From NCBI GenBank assembly GCA_020059915.1, contig JAGVBB010000003.1, positions 40,920 to 104,919 on the forward strand: a DNA stretch of 64,000 bases, read 5' to 3'. Each line of letters starts with the position of its first letter. Positions within the stretch are counted from its first letter, which is position 1. This DNA is from Minisyncoccota bacterium. Lineage in GTDB: Bacteria > Patescibacteriota > Minisyncoccia > UBA6257 > GWB1-50-10. This document shows, piece by piece, positions 6,599 to 40,366 of this stretch. The position numbers and the translations under genes are program-made. The notes beneath the pieces are model-generated. The model ran no database searches. It saw only the letters and a list, made by a program, of their open reading frames with translations, and was not told the origin of the DNA.

Positions 6599-7722
6599 AG
6601 AAAATAAGAATTCCCAAAAGTGGAAGCCCAGATTTTGTTTTTTTAGGGTTTTTAATTATTCTTGTTATTTTTGGTTTGGTAATGCTCACGAGTGCATCTT
6701 CTGATATTGCCAAATTAGAAAGTGGGGATAGTATGTATTATTTAAAACACCAAATGCTGAATGGACTTTCTATTGGCATGTTTGGTTTCCTTGTTGGATA
6801 CTTTTTGTATTATCGTATTTGGGAAAAAATTTCTATACCACTTTTGGTGGTCGGTATTATTGGTCTTTGTCTTGTTTTTACCCCATTAGTGATGAGTGTT
6901 AAGGGAGGGGATAGATGGGTTGATTTAAAGTTATTTTCTTTCCAACCTGGAGAATTTATGAAACTTGCGTTTCTTGTATACCTTTCTGCTTGGGTGGGGA
7001 AAAACCAGGAACGAGGAAAAAGTTTTTTTGGAGGATTTTTACCGTTTATGGTTCTTGTTGGTGCGGTGATGTTACTTCTTGTTTTCCAACCAGCAACATC
7101 CACAGCAGCATTAATATTTGGTGCATCGATTATTACCTATTTTGTTGCGGGAGCAAAGCCAAGATTTTTTGTTGCTATGGTGTTGATAGGGGCACTTTCT
7201 TTTTCCGCACTAGTATTTTTTGATACAAATGATGCTGGAGAAAATTATCGCCTTAAACGTATCATGACATTTCTCCATCCTGAGGATGACCCATTAAACA
7301 AAGGATATCACATCAACCAGGCTCTCAACGCAATTGGTTCTGGAGAAGTGTTTGGTGTTGGTTTTGGTAAATCGACAACAAAGCTCCATTATCTTCCCGA
7401 GCCGATTGGAGATTCAATTTTTGCTGTTATAGCAGAGGAACTTGGATTTGTCGGTGCAGTTGGATTTCTTCTTTTTTTCCTGGCATTTCTATGGCGAGGG
7501 TTTCGGATTGCTACCCGCGCCCCGGACAATTTTGGAAAACTACTTGTTACAGGCTTTATGAGTGTTTTAGGACTCCAGGCATTTGTGAATATCGGTGCGA
7601 TTTCTGGAGTTATACCACTCACTGGTGTTCCACTTCCATTTGTAAGTTATGGTGGAACCGCTCTCGCAATATTTCTTACTATGTCTGGAATTATCATGAA
7701 TGTTTCAAAATATAGACGATAA
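6595..7722 (+). CDS. ftsW: SEDS-family peptidoglycan polymerase FtsW/RodA
   Basis: Ten-TM profile with the conserved C-terminal motif GVIPLTGVPLPFVSYGGT. Confidence 0.8.
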   Translation: MKKIRIPKSGSPDFVFLGFLIILVIFGLVMLTSASSDIAKLESGDSMYYLKHQMLNGLSIGMFGFLVGYFLYYRIWEKISIPLLVVGIIGLCLVFTPLVMSVKGGDRWVDLKLFSFQPGEFMKLAFLVYLSAWVGKNQERGKSFFGGFLPFMVLVGAVMLLLVFQPATSTAALIFGASIITYFVAGAKPRFFVAMVLIGALSFSALVFFDTNDAGENYRLKRIMTFLHPEDDPLNKGYHINQALNAIGSGEVFGVGFGKSTTKLHYLPEPIGDSIFAVIAEELGFVGAVGFLLFFLAFLWRGFRIATRAPDNFGKLLVTGFMSVLGLQAFVNIGAISGVIPLTGVPLPFVSYGGTALAIFLTMSGIIMNVSKYRR

Positions 7723-7727
7723 ACAAT

Positions 7728-8870
7728 ATGAGAAGAACAAAAAAAATTAGAATTGGTTTTACTGGTGGGGGAACAGGCGGACATATATATCCATTACTTG
7801 CTGTGTGTGATGAGTTTTTAGCAAAACGCGGTGTGTATGATGACACAATTGTTGAAATGCACTATTTTGGAGATCCAGGAATATATCAAAACGAATTTGA
7901 ATTTAGAAATATACACGTGCATCCGATTATCGGAAGTAGATTGCGCAGGTATATGTCTGTTCAAAACATTTTTGATATTCCGAAGTTTTTTCTCAGCATC
8001 TTTCAATCTCTTGTCATTATGCTTTTTACCATGCCAGATGTTTTGTTTTCAAAAGGCGGACCAGGATCTGTTCCTGTTGTGTTATCTGCATGGTGGTACA
8101 GAATCCCCGTAATAATTCATGAATCAGATGCCGTTCCTGGTTTGGGAAACCGTATATCTTCAAAATTTGCAAAACGTATTTGTGTGGCGTTTTCTGAATC
8201 AAAAACATTTTTTCCTGAGTCAAAAGTTTCTCTTACGGGAAATCCTATTCGAAAAGAACTTCTTGGAAATCGTATGTCAAAAGAAGGAGCAAAAAATTTT
8301 TGGCGCATGAATGAAAAACTTCCATTGGTACTTGTGCTTGGTGGTTCACAGGGATCCCAGCGAATAAATTCACTGATTATTGAAAATCTCGCAGAATTAC
8401 TCGGAGATATACAGATATTGCACCAGGTTGGTAAACATAACTATCAGGACATAGAAATGTCTATGAAGGAAATTATGGCGCCAGTCCCTCGAGAATTTCG
8501 TGATAGATATCGCGCAGTTGGTTTTATGGATGTTGAGGAAATGAAACATGCCTTTTCATCCGCAAATGTTGTTGTTTCGCGTGCTGGTTCTGGGGCAATA
8601 TTTGAAATTGCATCGTTTAATGTGCCAGCGGTGCTCATACCACTCAAAGAGTCAGCGGGAGACCATCAGCGAGTGAATGCCTATGCATATTCAAAGATTA
8701 GTCGTGCACAAGTTCTTGAGGAGGAAAACATGACTGTACATGAATTACAATCAAGAATTCATAGAGAACTTCAGAATGGACAACCAACGGAATCATCTCC
8801 AAACCAATTTTTTATACAAAATTCATCGCAATTGATTGTTCAGGAAATTAATCGTTATATAGCAAATTAA
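7728..8870 (+). CDS. murG: UDP-GlcNAc--lipid I N-acetylglucosaminyltransferase
   Basis: N-terminal IGFTGGGTGGHIYPLLAV glycine-rich loop. GT28 architecture. Confidence 0.85.
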   Translation: MRRTKKIRIGFTGGGTGGHIYPLLAVCDEFLAKRGVYDDTIVEMHYFGDPGIYQNEFEFRNIHVHPIIGSRLRRYMSVQNIFDIPKFFLSIFQSLVIMLFTMPDVLFSKGGPGSVPVVLSAWWYRIPVIIHESDAVPGLGNRISSKFAKRICVAFSESKTFFPESKVSLTGNPIRKELLGNRMSKEGAKNFWRMNEKLPLVLVLGGSQGSQRINSLIIENLAELLGDIQILHQVGKHNYQDIEMSMKEIMAPVPREFRDRYRAVGFMDVEEMKHAFSSANVVVSRAGSGAIFEIASFNVPAVLIPLKESAGDHQRVNAYAYSKISRAQVLEEENMTVHELQSRIHRELQNGQPTESSPNQFFIQNSSQLIVQEINRYIAN

Positions 8871-14795: not shown

Positions 14796-14820
14796 AATCC
14801 CCTTCCGAGAAGGGGTTTAT
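14796..14820 (+). terminator. bidirectional intrinsic terminator
   Basis: Hairpin aaatcccc-ttccgagaa-ggggttt between convergent genes. Confidence 0.5.
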
Positions 14821-15332
14821 ACTTTATGTTTTTCGTCGGAGTCTATAAATTTTACGCCATATTTTTCAGAAAGTTCTTTTAGTTTTGATTTTAGTTTCTC
14901 TCTGCCTATATCAGAATATATAGACCCTTCAATGTTAATTTCTTTTTCTTTTGCAAAGCGGAATGTTTCTTCTGCTAATTTTGATCCATATCCCTTCCCC
15001 TGCTCCGAGTCCTTCACTGACATAAAAGAAATCCAATATGTATTTTCTTCATATGGACTTTTTTCAAGTTCACATATCCCCACTATATCTTTTTCTTTAC
15101 TAACTAATGGATAGAATAATTCCCTTTTTTGAGTTTTTCTTTCCATAAGTTTACGCAAGTCAAAATATTTGAATTCTCCCCCGTTTTCTTTTTTTAAAAA
15201 TTTCTTGTCTGGATTATGTTTATCTTTATAAATAATCTTTTCTAATTCATCCGCAGAAACTGTTTCTGTAGATACAGGAAATTCTTCTTTCTTTTCTTTT
15301 TGTATTTTTCTATTAAATTCTTTTTGTTCCAT
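14817..15332 (-). CDS. GNAT-family acetyltransferase-like protein
   Basis: Motif-A-like QGKGYGSKLAEE in the C-terminal half. Lys/Glu-rich N-terminus. Confidence 0.5.
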   Translation of the reverse strand: MEQKEFNRKIQKEKKEEFPVSTETVSADELEKIIYKDKHNPDKKFLKKENGGEFKYFDLRKLMERKTQKRELFYPLVSKEKDIVGICELEKSPYEENTYWISFMSVKDSEQGKGYGSKLAEETFRFAKEKEINIEGSIYSDIGREKLKSKLKELSEKYGVKFIDSDEKHKV

Positions 15333-34811: not shown

Positions 34812-34892
34812 TTTTTATATTGACAATCTTTGACAAATCCCCGATTTATTGGTATTTTATTTACAACGTTAACAAATTATATTGGAGGAACA

Positions 34893-35402
34893 ATGGTTAA
34901 GGGCAAGAGGTTTTTTCGGCTTTCCATTGCTATTCAGGAACTATTTTTGTTGATTTCAGAGATGAATCATCTGAAGCAATCAAAGCAAACAGGCATCTTT
35001 GTATCCGTCTTCAACAAGGAAACAGGAGATGCTCTGATGGAGCAAACATTTGGATTACTCCATCTTGATCAGGAAGAATCATATAGAGTTTTTTGTCAGC
35101 AACGGGCATTTTGGCTTTTTAGCCATCCCGATGCAATTTGTTCTATTGAAAATGGCGAGGACGCATTTACTGGCGCTGTTTCAGGAAGAAAACATGTTGT
35201 TGCGGTTTCAGGACTTGATCCACATGACAATTCGGCAGTCGCCATTCTCATTTTGAGCCAGCTTGAAGATACACAAGAAGATCGCGATAAACGCGATGCA
35301 TATGTACGGATGTCAGAATGTTGGGATGATTTGTATATCATTCTTGATTTTCTTGCATGCGTACACAAGATGGATCTATTTGATCGGTTCAATGCAGTGT
35401 AA
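34893..35402 (+). CDS. hypothetical protein, paralog family member A
   Basis: Start at the ATG after GGAGG. Conserved core HPDAICSIENGEDAFTGAVSGRKHVVAVSGLDPHDNSAVAILIL is shared with 35441-35890 and 44472-45017. Confidence 0.5.
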   Translation: MVKGKRFFRLSIAIQELFLLISEMNHLKQSKQTGIFVSVFNKETGDALMEQTFGLLHLDQEESYRVFCQQRAFWLFSHPDAICSIENGEDAFTGAVSGRKHVVAVSGLDPHDNSAVAILILSQLEDTQEDRDKRDAYVRMSECWDDLYIILDFLACVHKMDLFDRFNAV

Positions 35403-35440: not shown

Positions 35441-35890
35441 ATGAATGTAGAAGATGCAACCAAAACTGTTGAAGCATTTATTGCTCTCATTTCCAAAACA
35501 CTCAAACCATTTCCAACACAACGACGTTTTGTGCAGGTATACGACAAAGAAGAACAAAGAGTTGTTATCAGTATGGTCTTGGGAAGTGGAAATAAAAAGA
35601 ATGGACTTGATACAAAACAAAGAATGCTTGCATGGCTTTTGGAACACCCGGATGCTGTTGCTTCGGCAGAAAGTTGCGGAGACGCCCCCGATGGCGGAAT
35701 TTCAGGACGAAGATATATTGTTTTGGTTTCTGGTGGGTTCCCGATTGATAATTCGGCGCTTGCGATTTTATTATTCGCACAGATTGAACACGAGCCGGTG
35801 GATACCATCAATCGAGAAACCTATATTGAAAAAGCTGGATGTAAGGAAGAACTTAATTCATTGCTCAATTTTCTCGAAATTACGATATAA
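35441..35890 (+). CDS. hypothetical protein, paralog family member B
   Basis: AGGAGG SD. Core HPDAVASAESCGDAPDGGISGRRYIVLVSGGFPIDNSALAILLFAQIEHEP. The terminator accgcgcatgatgcgcggttttttt at 35897-35921 follows. Confidence 0.5.
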   Translation: MNVEDATKTVEAFIALISKTLKPFPTQRRFVQVYDKEEQRVVISMVLGSGNKKNGLDTKQRMLAWLLEHPDAVASAESCGDAPDGGISGRRYIVLVSGGFPIDNSALAILLFAQIEHEPVDTINRETYIEKAGCKEELNSLLNFLEITI

Positions 35891-37525: not shown

Positions 37526-37596
37526 TGCGGGATCGTCTAATGGTAGGACAGCGGACTCTGAATCCGTCAATCTTGGTTCGAATCCAGGTCCCGCAG
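37526..37596 (+). tRNA. tRNA-Gln (anticodon CTG)
   Basis: Acceptor tgcggga/tcccgca, anticodon loop ctCTGaa, T-arm cttggttcgaatccagg and discriminator G. No encoded CCA. Confidence 0.8.
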
Positions 37597-37603
37597 CACA
37601 TGA

Positions 37604-37640
37604 AAATCTGGAACACATTTGTTGTGCTCCAGATTTTTAT
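37604..37640 (+). terminator. intrinsic terminator after tRNA-Gln
   Basis: aaaatctggaacac-atttgtt-gtgctccagattttt. Confidence 0.5.
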
Positions 37641-37830
37641 TTGTAGGACACCGGATTCGAACCGCGGGCCGCAGGCTTCGAAGAGAAGCCGAAGGTCTCG
37701 AACTCAGCAGAGTGAGAGGCGAATCCAGGTCCCGCAGCCAATTTTTAAGCGTAAAAATTGCGTCGAAACGAGCACGCTTTCGACGTTGAATCATATTATT
37801 TGCACCGTAAGGTGCAAATATAACAGGAGT
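37641..37830. repeat. tRNA-Gln-derived partial copies and hairpin cluster
   Basis: 19-nt direct copy of the tRNA-Gln 3' end (cgaatccaggtcccgcagc at 37711-37729). Inverted T-arm-like ccggattcgaacc at 37651-37663. Hairpins ggcttcgaagagaagcc, cgtcgaaa...tttcgacg and atttgcacc-gtaa-ggtgcaaat. Confidence 0.45.
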
Positions 37831-37993
37831 ATAAATCACGCAGAAATTAGCACAATTTCTGCGACATTTGTTTAGTATATATTTTTTCCGGATTGTTGAA
37901 TGGCGAATCCAGGTTCAAAAATGCACGCGAATGCGTGCATTTTTTGGTGTTGATAGAATTGTATATTTGTTGGATAATTTATTCAATAAGTAT

Positions 37994-38521
37994 ATGGATT
38001 ATATAGATTTATTAGATAATACTTTTTTTGGAACCCTTTTTGCTGGAAGTCTCATTGCAATTTTGGGATATATCTTTTATAAAAAACAAAAAATATTGGA
38101 TATTTTCTATAGAAAAGAGGAAGAAAAACAAAAAAAGTGTGATATTCTTCTAAAACATTTAAGAATTTCTGTGGATGACTGTAGGGCTCAAGTGGACGTC
38201 CGTAATGGAAAAAATTCTATTGCAAAAAATATATATGATTTTATAGAATCTACGTATTCAAATTTTATTTCTAGATCAAACTCAATTAGATTTCGAAATT
38301 ATGTAGACAAGATTAATGATTCATTTGATGAATTAAAACTTTTTTTAATTCCTGAAGATAAGTACAAAACAGAAAGAAATGAACTTCAAAATTTAATACC
38401 CTCAATCACCTTTTATTTGGCAGGAGTTGATATTTTAGAGGAAAAAAATGTAGTTGAACTTGAAAAAAAATTACAAGAAGCAGAGAATATTTTAAAAAAA
38501 ATTGGAAAAGTAAAAGACTAA
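37994..38521 (+). CDS. hypothetical membrane-anchored coiled-coil protein (island gene 1)
   Basis: Start reassigned to MDYIDLL. One N-terminal TM, then a Lys/Glu-rich helical region. Very AT-rich coding sequence. Confidence 0.4.
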   Translation: MDYIDLLDNTFFGTLFAGSLIAILGYIFYKKQKILDIFYRKEEEKQKKCDILLKHLRISVDDCRAQVDVRNGKNSIAKNIYDFIESTYSNFISRSNSIRFRNYVDKINDSFDELKLFLIPEDKYKTERNELQNLIPSITFYLAGVDILEEKNVVELEKKLQEAENILKKIGKVKD

Positions 38522-38529
38522 TTAGAATC

Positions 38530-39456
38530 ATGGACGAAAAATTAAAATTATTTGTAATGGGGCATGGGAATGCTTTTCATTCGAGGGTTATTTCTAAACT
38601 TCGAACTTTGGGTTGGAGTGTTATGGTAAGTCCATTTTATCGAGATAATGCCACTGGTAAGGCGAGAGAGGCTGATATTATTGCGGAAAAAGAAGTAAAA
38701 TTTGGCATGGATGGAAATTCGAATGCTAGCAATGGTTTCTTTTTAATACGATTAGTTATTGAGTGTAAATATGTTAAGGACCCTATTATTTTTTGGTTTG
38801 ACAAAAAAGATGCCACAGCTACTGAAGAGAGAATTATAAAAGATATTAGTATTTTTCAAAATTCAAAAAAAAATACCTCGATAAAAAAGCACCATTGGTA
38901 TGAGTCAGAAGAAGCCGCAAAATTATTTGCCACTTTCAACCAAAACAAAGAAGAACGACAATTTGAAAATGAAATTATTTTTTCTTCCGTTGATAAAGTC
39001 CTCAATTGTTTGATAAACTATAGATCAAAGCCCTCAATAATCACCTCTCCAATTTCTCCAGACCATTGTTTTTATAAAAAATTAAATCCGATTATTATTA
39101 CGTATCCCATTATTATTTTGGACAGTTTTTCTAAACTATATAGAACAGAAATATCATCACAAACAGATCAAATTACAAATTTAAATGGGGCTGTAAATTT
39201 TGATATAGAAGTTAATTATGAATATGAACAAGGTATTTTTGGCGGCGAACATCCAAAAGTTAGTCATCACCCCTATTTGTCTATTAGAGTAAAAATGCCA
39301 GGAGAAACCGAGCCTGAAGAGCCTAAAACATGGAGTGAATATAAAAATATGAATTTTGAATATTTCTTACTTGACGTCACTTGTATTGAGAAATTAGATG
39401 ACTATTTAGAAAAATTAAAAAATAAGGATTTAAGAGCAGCGCTTAATTTTGTCTAA
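38530..39456 (+). CDS. Mrr-cat (restriction endonuclease type IV-like) domain protein with unknown C-terminal domain (island gene 2)
   Basis: N-terminal 90 aa FHSRVISKLRTLGWSVMVSPFYRDNATGKAREADIIAEKEV...FFLIRLVIECKYV fit the Mrr_cat pattern (D...DIIAEK...ECK is a PD-(D/E)xK core). The C-terminal 190 aa or so are not recognised. Confidence 0.55.
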   Translation: MDEKLKLFVMGHGNAFHSRVISKLRTLGWSVMVSPFYRDNATGKAREADIIAEKEVKFGMDGNSNASNGFFLIRLVIECKYVKDPIIFWFDKKDATATEERIIKDISIFQNSKKNTSIKKHHWYESEEAAKLFATFNQNKEERQFENEIIFSSVDKVLNCLINYRSKPSIITSPISPDHCFYKKLNPIIITYPIIILDSFSKLYRTEISSQTDQITNLNGAVNFDIEVNYEYEQGIFGGEHPKVSHHPYLSIRVKMPGETEPEEPKTWSEYKNMNFEYFLLDVTCIEKLDDYLEKLKNKDLRAALNFV

Positions 39457-39462
39457 TTAATT

Positions 39463-39933
39463 ATGAATGAATTATCTTATAAAGCAGTAGATTTTATAAA
39501 AGAAATTCGAAGTAAAATCCAGTTTCTTGTTACTGTACAAATCTTCTTTTCGGGGGTTATGTATGCTTTTTATGACGCCATTGGTAGTGAGGTGATAAAA
39601 GATGGTACAAATACTCTTTTTTGGGGTATTGGTGTAGCGTTTTGTTTAATAAACTATTTAATGATTGGAATTCTTGAGGAGTCAAAAGAAAGAATGTTTC
39701 GTTGGATAAATATTAGTATCTCAATAAACATTGCATGCTTTATATTACCTTTTGTTATTTTAGCGCTGGTAGTGAGAAATCCTCTTCCCAGTTTTTATAA
39801 CTGGCCGTTTATTATTTCTTTTGGAGGAGCAATTTGGATGCCGATAGTTACATTTTCAACCATTATTGGTGCCTCATATTGGAATATTTTTTTATGGATC
39901 AACAAGTTACTCAAAAATATAACTAAAAAATAA
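39463..39933 (+). CDS. hypothetical 4-TM membrane protein (island gene 3)
   Basis: 156 aa with four predicted TM helices, 6 nt downstream of the nuclease gene. Confidence 0.45.
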   Translation: MNELSYKAVDFIKEIRSKIQFLVTVQIFFSGVMYAFYDAIGSEVIKDGTNTLFWGIGVAFCLINYLMIGILEESKERMFRWINISISINIACFILPFVILALVVRNPLPSFYNWPFIISFGGAIWMPIVTFSTIIGASYWNIFLWINKLLKNITKK

Positions 39934-39941
39934 ATCCAATC

Positions 39942-40298
39942 ATGCTCCACCAAATGCATTTACATCCAAATCCCTTCAGAAAGATAAAAGAGGGATCACA
40001 ACAGATTGAAACACGAATATATGACGAAAAACGTCGTCAGTTTAAAATTGGTGACAGTATTGAATTTATTTCTCGAGAAAATCCCGAAGATAAATTTTTA
40101 GTAGAAATAACAGATCTTATTATCAAACCAACTTTTTCTGAGCTTTTTGATACCTTTCCGTCCGAACTATTTGGGGGAAAAGACAAAGAGGATTTAATGG
40201 GAATCTATAAATATTATTCACCCCAAGAAGAAAAAGACTTTGGTGTGGTGGGTATAAAGGTGCGATTGATTGACTCTCTGGAGCAGAGTAAAAAGTGA
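39942..40298 (+). CDS. ASCH (PUA-like) domain protein
   Basis: MHLHPNPFRKIKEGSQQIETRIYDEKRRQFKIGDSIEF matches the ASCH domain N-terminal beta-barrel pattern (GxKxxExR ... GD). Confidence 0.6.
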   Translation: MLHQMHLHPNPFRKIKEGSQQIETRIYDEKRRQFKIGDSIEFISRENPEDKFLVEITDLIIKPTFSELFDTFPSELFGGKDKEDLMGIYKYYSPQEEKDFGVVGIKVRLIDSLEQSKK

Positions 40299-40313
40299 GA
40301 TTCTGTCGCTAGT

Positions 40314-40346
40314 AAAAAATACCAGTTTTATAGCTGGTATTTTTGT
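40314..40346 (+). terminator. intrinsic terminator at the island end
   Basis: aaaaataccag-ttttatag-ctggtatttttg. Confidence 0.55.
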
Positions 40347-40366
40347 ATATTGTTATAGGTTTTTGT

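Follow-up and report, generated by a model that had tools for sequence, protein, structure and literature searches.

Uncharacterised PD-(D/E)xK families are common in defence neighbourhoods, and genomes of the candidate phyla radiation (CPR) carry few known defence systems. Two described families of this superfamily serve as the closest references for the gene studied here: Mrr, whose catalytic domain (Mrr_cat, PF04471; PDB 1y88) stands for type IV, modification-dependent restriction, and XisH (PF08814; PDB 2okf and 2inb), the excision-controlling factor of the fdxN element of cyanobacteria. A census published in 2012 gives 1y88 as a structure of Mrr_cat and 2okf as one of XisH, and counts both XisH and UPF0102 among the PD-(D/E)xK families (PMC3424549); the serine recombinase XisF works together with XisH and XisI (PMC3424549, ref. 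115). It has also been documented that integron cassettes act as a reservoir for compact defence genes (bioRxiv 10.1101/2024.07.02.601719; PMC12614218). The locus analyzed in this work lies in a 64-kb stretch of a Candidatus Parcubacteria (CPR) genome, referred to as the window, where four open reading frames (ORFs) on the plus strand, named g1 to g4, are found downstream of a tRNA-Gln gene, with g2 as the middle, nuclease-fold gene.

A first-pass annotation had read g2 and the membrane proteins on either side of it, followed by an ASCH protein, as a candidate defence module. We favour a different explanation, to which we assign a probability of around 60%: the block would be a small islet that has decayed, carries no integrase and lies at a tRNA-Gln integration hotspot, in which g2 is an autonomous mobile nuclease and not part of a four-gene defence system, and in which the ORFan g1 and also g3, which encodes a membrane protein rare in CPR, are unrelated passengers of high AT content. 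In the mechanism that we propose, the N-terminal alpha-beta-beta-beta-alpha-beta core of g2 would carry a metal site made up of D39, E47, D49 and E78-x-K80, the C-terminal beta-beta-beta-beta-alpha segment would pack against this nuclease core, and the enzyme would cut invading DNA without partner proteins. Self-DNA would be spared through substrate choice, because no methyltransferase was found in the 64-kb window and none is adjacent at most loci where relatives of g2 occur; the most likely route would be dependence on a foreign base modification, as in type IV-like restriction.

Fold and predicted active site of g2

The g2 gene (38530-39456, plus strand) encodes a protein of 308 amino acids (aa), identical to NCBI C4565_04175, a 'hypothetical protein', and it is the only part of the locus with comparative support. 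Sequence and model comparison assign it to an unnamed family of stand-alone PD-(D/E)xK nucleases. No model in Pfam (none at E <= 1), PADLOC, NCBIfam or PHROGs matches g2, nothing meaningful was retrieved from PDB by sequence or profile search, whether with g2 or with two family alignments (A1 and A2), and Foldseek gave no match in PDB or BFVD at E <= 0.001. The locus had been described as no named system, in agreement with the PADLOC results, where only noise-level matches were obtained for the four proteins and for 85 members of the g2 family.

Five residues, D39, E47, D49, E78 and K80, are the sole invariant columns of the 85-sequence alignment A2, and all of them are intact in the window copy. 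Their codons lie at 38644-38646, 38668-38670, 38674-38676, 38761-38763 and 38767-38769, so that this acidic/lysine cluster, identified from A2 and an AlphaFold2 (AF2) model, spans 38644-38769 on the plus strand. The model (predicted template modelling score, pTM, 0.77) shows an alpha-beta-beta-beta-alpha-beta core with strands at residues 50-59 and 68-80, where D49 starts beta2 and E78-C79-K80 ends beta3. Both the core fold of the PD-(D/E)xK superfamily and its D...(D/E)-x-K signature on adjacent strands are thus found, and sequence and model together place g2 among the proteins of PD-(D/E)xK nuclease fold, with D...ExK as its signature; the five residues are predicted to form a catalytic, metal-binding site on the beta2/beta3 hairpin. 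The peptide motifs quoted in the first-pass annotation are present in the translation, and the nuclease core that it had inferred from them stands as far as fold and D...ExK motif are concerned, but not as Mrr_cat, since none of the 85 family members matches PF04471 at E <= 0.01.

Weak Pfam contacts were obtained instead with XisH (5/85 members) and UPF0102 (2/85). Structure comparison of g2, in which at most ~130 of its 308 residues align, gave figures of 7.7 for TIP26, 7.3 for XisH 2okf, 7.2 for Upx, 6.7 for both Hjc and McrC, and 6.5 for both FokI and AF1548 (1y88), with Can2, AspBHI and SduA lower than this last group. With 1y88 listed as Mrr_cat and 2okf as XisH, the structure does not separate an affinity to the one from an affinity to the other, and the sequence leans slightly towards XisH.

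The ~190 aa after the nuclease core had been set apart as a stretch of their own, a view that does not hold: the C-terminal part of g2 is conserved family-wide, with blocks that continue to the family C-terminus (VFWFD, HHY, VAKLF, NQxLN, YPxIxCNxF, FQLEVNYAY and EYFLIDVV), and it does not fold alone. When the C-terminal 143 aa were modelled in isolation, AF2 gave a predicted local distance difference test score (pLDDT) of 52, whereas the same strands reach 83-96 in the full-length model. The segment is on these grounds non-autonomous, and according to the models it is an integral extension of the core and not a separate reader domain. A lineage-specific insertion of ~32 extra residues is found in this half of the window protein (~aa 239-276; 39244-39357, plus strand; columns 291-333 of alignment A1). 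It consists of two segments (~aa 239-251 and 258-276) between conserved strands, is absent from every aligned homolog, and falls in a region where AF2 pLDDT is below 50 (residues 235-261).

Spread, mobility and surroundings of the g2 family

Just 19 relatives were obtained in a word-indexed search with g2, while an exhaustive HMMER profile search, on clusters at 50% identity, retrieved 1046 representatives at E <= 1e-3, of which 210 reach E <= 1e-30. Among the 150 matches listed, most are 250-295 aa long (typically ~265 aa) and align nearly end to end. The ten members that were looked up were all unnamed or 'hypothetical protein', and identity within the family is 30-60% across phyla. Scans of genome contigs and viral contigs with alignment A1 gave no matches, the genome contigs later yielding loci with alignment A3, and no match was found by tblastn of g2 against catalogued plasmid and phage collections. 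With A3, whose sensitivity is pattern-limited, 61 loci were drawn from 185,579 species-representative genomes, ranging from Cyanobacteria to Patescibacteria and including a Woesearchaeote. The tests of neighbourhood and of the proposed module made use of ~60 independent loci from metagenomes and species-representative genomes; individual loci are cited below by L numbers.

The g2-family gene is horizontally mobile and moves as a single gene. Its GC content is lower than that of the host locus in 50 of 52 loci, with a mean difference of -0.10 that reaches -0.31 in Geothrix. In Phormidesmis priestleyi (L014; NZ_LXYR01000003.1, 7867-8965) a 1020-bp islet has the g2 homolog WP_068814816.1 as its sole gene, without any integrase, and is bracketed by a ~75-nt direct repeat, in which the 3' end of tRNA-Glu is joined by its terminator hairpin, in copies that are ~93% identical. 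A second kind of vehicle was found in Geothrix campi SG10 (L039, 7819-10497). The attC sites of integron cassettes are imperfect palindromes with the consensus RYYYAAC...GTTRRRY, and in this locus the g2 homolog lies between two 123-nt repeats that start with GCCTAAC, end with GTTAGGC and have ends that pair when folded. At least five copies of this attC-like repeat, spaced at 470-955 bp, form an array that runs off the contig, and no integron integrase is present in the 7.8 kb upstream of it. This acidobacterial array looks like a chromosomal integron, or a cluster of attC sites lacking an integron integrase (CALIN), of which the g2 homolog would be one cassette. The same element directly follows the homolog at a second Geothrix locus (L031, 8772-8821).

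Another homolog (L045) is directly preceded, at 7566-7847, by a tRNA-Ser(GCT) gene and, 107 nt after it, a second gene resembling tRNA-Ser that has diverged and has the anticodon ACT, a pair that may be another scar of tRNA duplication.

With respect to defence, the association that had been proposed for the block was borne out for the g2 family. Restriction-modification (R-M) components occur near the g2-family gene in 13 of 61 loci; the density of R-M matches is 7.7% at a gene distance of 1-2 versus 0.6% at distances of 4 or more, and proximity enrichment persists with seed genes excluded (odds ratio 4.2, p = 0.026). Other neighbours of g2 homologs are Shedu SduA, PifA, GajB of Gabija and a DRT-associated helicase, so that the family is associated with R-M and other defence loci. 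The Shedu SduA gene of L043 lies 6 nt downstream of the mod-res-g2 operon described below. With less certainty, at slightly under even odds, the g2 family could constitute a new and widespread class of single-gene restriction nucleases, present in integron cassettes, tRNA islets and type I and type III R-M operons.

The R-M contexts also give rise to the main rival of the autonomous-nuclease reading, namely that g2 provides the endonuclease subunit in a classical R-M system that depends on a methyltransferase, either as a type II enzyme or as an accessory or trans-acting nuclease of type I or III, and that the window copy is an orphan left over from such a system, being inactive, silenced or guarded by a distant methyltransferase. 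Several loci speak for this. A g2 homolog sits inside an operon between hsdM and hsdS (L007), between type III mod and res (L036, 6431-11041), or at the end of a mod-res operon with gaps of 2-3 nt (L043, 4037-10085; L051, 4017-8849); an N6_N4 methyltransferase gene adjoins the homolog in L066, at 105 bp and in divergent orientation, and in L071, 35 bp downstream of it, and a methyltransferase lies within two genes in L042 and L048. We nevertheless regard this explanation as unlikely, since no R-M component is present in the fetched flanks (up to 8 kb per side) of 48 of the 61 loci, single-gene cassettes travel without a methyltransferase, and the window has no methyltransferase, yet preserves the five invariant residues. 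The conservation of the family (30-60% identity across phyla) is also unusually high, while type II restriction endonucleases usually diverge along with their specificity.

The Res proteins of L036, L043 and L051 are ~755 aa long and only their N-terminal helicase domain is detected by Pfam; a PDB sequence search for a nuclease domain in a 763-aa type III Res encoded beside a g2 homolog gave no matches. These Res proteins might be devoid of a nuclease domain, which g2 would then contribute. In L011, an ORF just downstream of the g2 homolog (962-1447; 162 aa or more, cut off by the contig end) has a D...E-H-K motif (FILVDAEHKK) and may, judging from this motif, encode a second PD-(D/E)xK nuclease. 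In L024 (4798-7088), from a metagenome-assembled genome of Nitrospirales, the homolog is 257 bp from a convergent RarA/MgsA gene, and in the window RarA is 2.1 kb downstream; since the two loci share no other genes, this synteny was discarded as a meaningful link and is probably a coincidence.

Mobility itself could be the function served, if g2 were an XisH-like factor for maintenance or excision of the element, or a selfish, toxin-like addiction nuclease serving its cassette. We consider this less likely than the role as R-M endonuclease, if only by a little. It would agree with the large serine recombinase encoded two genes from the homolog in L004 and with the att or attC repeats that flank the gene in L014 and L039, and integron cassettes often carry addiction modules. 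However, XisH is a single domain of ~135 aa paired with XisI, an architecture that the proteins of the g2 family (~255-290 aa, typically ~265 aa) do not show, and matches to XisH (best E 0.0017) seem too weak for membership. The 105 immediate neighbours of g2-family genes belong to 92 Pfam families, none seen more than three times; those that recur are ResIII, Y1_Tnp and another six with two occurrences each, none of which is XisI. Recombinases are adjacent in few loci (Phage_integrase, 2/105), and neighbour clustering revealed no conserved small antitoxin-like partner.

The tRNA-Gln islet and the genes around g2

The tRNA-Gln gene (anticodon CTG; 37526-37597, plus strand), detected by ARAGORN and Rfam (tRNA, 61.8 bits, E 7e-13), is separated from g1 by 397 bp, and the scar-like repeats that had been noticed between this gene and the block were confirmed. 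The 3'-terminal 19 nt of the tRNA gave two exact matches in the DNA search, versus 0.01 expected by chance. The second copy, an att-like scar located by exact-match search, repeat search and alignment, is at 37720-37738, and a partial third copy of 12 nt, found by repeat search and alignment, at 37904-37915, both on the plus strand. The sequence GGCGAATCCAGGT is common to copies 2 and 3, and the resident tRNA differs there. The three copies start at 37579, 37720 and 37904, and behind them lie three dissimilar hairpins, at 37597-37643, ~37759-37785 and 37917-37944, respectively. The spacer at 37598-37990 is a stack of such att-like scars, which suggests repeated events of integration and decay; it also contains, on the minus strand at ~37646-37680, the tRNA-like T-arm fragment GGTTCGAATCC.

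GC content falls to 0.25-0.33 across ~37750-40250, versus a window mean of 0.374. When compared with 62 background genes from the window (mean GC 0.379, sd 0.028), g1, g2 and g3 have z-scores of -4.6, -2.5 and -2.7 and rank 0-1 of 62, whereas g4 has a z-score of -1.0, with 7 of the 62 background genes lower. The compositionally distinct block previously described is, as a result, a compositional islet of g1-g3 only, the composition of g4 being native, and for those three genes the idea of a horizontally acquired AT-rich patch beside a tRNA is supported. The locus shows two features of a tRNA-inserted island, the position at the tRNA 3' end and the deviant composition (z -2.5 to -4.6), and lacks the other two, a bracketing tRNA 3' repeat and an integrase. 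All three copies of the tRNA end precede g1, without any counterpart on the right-hand side of the block; searches for a right-hand copy, even degenerate, beyond g3 or g4, or for another direct repeat flanking g1-g3 or g1-g4, only gave scores at the level of shuffled sequence, and no integrase was found among the ORFs or Pfam matches of the block. In keeping with this absence of a flanking repeat, the window copy does not have the layout of an integron cassette.

The g1 gene (37994-38521, plus strand) is the most AT-rich of the window (GC 0.252). Its product is a single-pass membrane protein, as previously proposed, with a transmembrane (TM) helix at aa 10-29 followed by a charged helical tail according to hydropathy; the NCBI start is the ATG at 37931, which gives 196 aa. 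It is an ORFan, with only a self-match among 5.8 billion clusters. The g3 gene (39463-39933, plus strand) encodes a small polytopic membrane protein with 3-4 TM segments, as deduced from its ORF, hydropathy and homolog search. The four segments initially assigned to it correspond to three strong ones and a fourth that is weaker and was called by eye. Two g3 homologs were found elsewhere, in L008 and L009, and relatives of g1, g2 and g4 are missing from both loci. The closest one is part of an island (L008, 5569-14655) that also encodes a large serine recombinase, several membrane or secreted proteins lacking annotation, and an R-M system of the Bsp6I type in which the methylase carries fused LexA/S24 domains; a TM/coiled-coil protein encoded upstream of it was rejected as a counterpart of g1, with which it has no similarity. 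In L009 the g3 homolog adjoins BtpA.

The assignment of g4 (39942-40298, plus strand) as a stand-alone ASCH (PUA-like) protein was corroborated. It scores 24.5 bits with Pfam ASCH (PF04266), above the gathering score of 21.2, matches PHROG 19935 (E 4.8e-20) and aligns over its full length with PH0355 of PDB (2z0t, E 1.5e-9), resembling the stand-alone Pyrococcus ASCH proteins PH0355 and PF0455. Given its native GC content, g4 is probably a resident gene that is downstream by chance and not cargo of the islet. Its inclusion in the island had no backing from the neighbourhoods either, where no family appears more than three times among the 105 neighbours.

Coordinates, strand and spacing of the four ORFs are those previously given, with gaps of 8, 6 and 8 nt for g1/g2, g2/g3 and g3/g4. 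Just 5' of the g1 ATG, the best sigma-70-like promoter match (TTGATA-17-GATAAT, 10/12; 37950-37978, plus strand) constitutes weak evidence, as such sites are no commoner there than in shuffles of AT-rich DNA. A terminator-like 13-bp hairpin with a T-rich tail follows g4 (40315-40344, plus strand). It is the only noncoding one of the two plus-strand terminator-like matches 3' of the g1 start, the other being a weaker 6-pair match within g3 (39788-39804). Owing to the tight spacing and the single strong terminator-like hairpin after g4, co-transcription of g1-g4 is possible in the Parcubacteria host genome.

These features are what could be put forward in favour of the module, in the form of a lineage-specific, membrane-coupled abortive-infection or defence system where g1, g2 and g3 would act with the ASCH protein g4 as reader of modified bases: a mobile nuclease would have been captured, with g1 and g3 as membrane sensors or anchors and all genes co-transcribed. 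The four genes share strand and gaps of 6-8 nt, one promoter-like site precedes g1 and the sole strong terminator-like hairpin follows g4, g1-g3 have an unusually low GC content in common, and stand-alone ASCH/EVE proteins are sometimes tied to R-M systems (PMC7641849). Nevertheless, relatives of g1, g3 and g4 are absent from the ~60 loci of the g2 family (tblastn E <= 0.1; phmmer E <= 10), where homologs of g2 travel as single-gene units, and the two g3 homologs have no relatives of g2 or g1 nearby. Homologs of the three genes do not co-localise in any case, an outcome that the first-pass annotation had itself named as counting against its proposal. In addition, g1 has no homolog, the composition of g4 is native and no PADLOC model fits the g1-g4 set. 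Genes are generally closely packed in compact CPR genomes, and such spacing is no evidence of functional coupling. With g1 an ORFan and g3 nearly so, the module would survive only as a lineage-specific possibility; on balance, we consider it improbable, clearly more so than the two alternatives discussed above.

Even less credit can be given to a housekeeping nuclease for repair, recombination or RNA processing (Hjc-, NucS- or YraN-like) in an incidentally AT-rich context, a role less likely than that of R-M endonuclease and at odds with the very patchy spread of the family (61 loci in 185,579 species representatives, with pattern-limited sensitivity), its nearly universal GC deficit with respect to the host, its cassette and islet contexts, and the lack of conserved synteny.

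Elsewhere in the window, a GNAT acetyltransferase gene (14817-15332, GC 0.29) is the sole other gene as AT-rich as the islet and may be another recent acquisition. Two tandem paralogous ORFs (34830-35402 and 35441-35890) share the motif HPDA..S.E.G.DA..G..SGR...V.VSG..P.DNSA.AIL, and neither of them has a Pfam match.

Weight of the evidence and comparison with known systems

The explanation of g2 as an autonomous mobile nuclease in a decayed islet has to be balanced against several points. We infer, from fold, active site and surroundings, that DNA rather than RNA is the substrate, that the role is in defence and that activity depends on modification. Without the seed genes, statistical support for the association with R-M systems is no more than moderate (p = 0.026), and the 48 loci without R-M components in their flanks make up 78% of the set. 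The methyltransferases in L066, L071, L042 and L048 fit a classical type II/III role of the enzyme at those loci. In the window itself, the unique 32-residue insertion may alter activity, and the tight spacing of g1-g4, maybe on one transcript, is compatible with a lineage-specific coupling, g1 being an ORFan.

The claim of a new multi-gene defence system fails, which saves the effort of a four-gene construct. What emerges is a large family of compact proteins (~265 aa) with a clear PD-(D/E)xK site, which travels as autonomous mobile cargo beside R-M and defence genes and, as a single 0.8-kb gene, is easily testable. If g2 restricts phage, especially in a modification-dependent manner, the repertoire of type IV and stand-alone restriction would gain a new family, and enzymes of this type could become a new reagent. 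The locus also indicates that tiny CPR genomes can acquire such cassettes at tRNA hotspots.

With respect to the systems described so far, the g2 family differs from Mrr in the order of its parts: Mrr has an N-terminal winged-helix (wH) DNA-binding domain and a C-terminal catalytic domain, whereas in g2 the catalytic motif is at aa 39-80 of 308 and no match to Mrr_N or a wH domain was obtained, in line with the absence of PF04471 from all 85 members. Enzymes of the MspJI/AspBHI and PvuRts1I/AbaSI types possess an autonomous SRA or PUA-like reader domain, while for the C-terminal part of g2, with its pLDDT of 52 alone, no reader fold was matched, the model of the isolated segment not having been fold-searched. 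XisH is mostly cyanobacterial and pairs with XisI, whereas the g2 family extends over many phyla, has no recurrent XisI-like partner and presents a conserved, non-autonomous C-terminal extension; the few weak matches to XisH are far below the Pfam gathering score. A parallel in layout is that of BRiCs, integron-borne single-gene phage-defence cassettes consisting of small autonomous genes between attC sites (bioRxiv 10.1101/2024.07.02.601719), and the Geothrix homologs share this array layout, a likeness of arrangement that the window copy, not being in an integron, does not have. In summary, the g2 family is new and still without a name, and belongs to an already known kind of enzyme, the solitary restriction-type nuclease.

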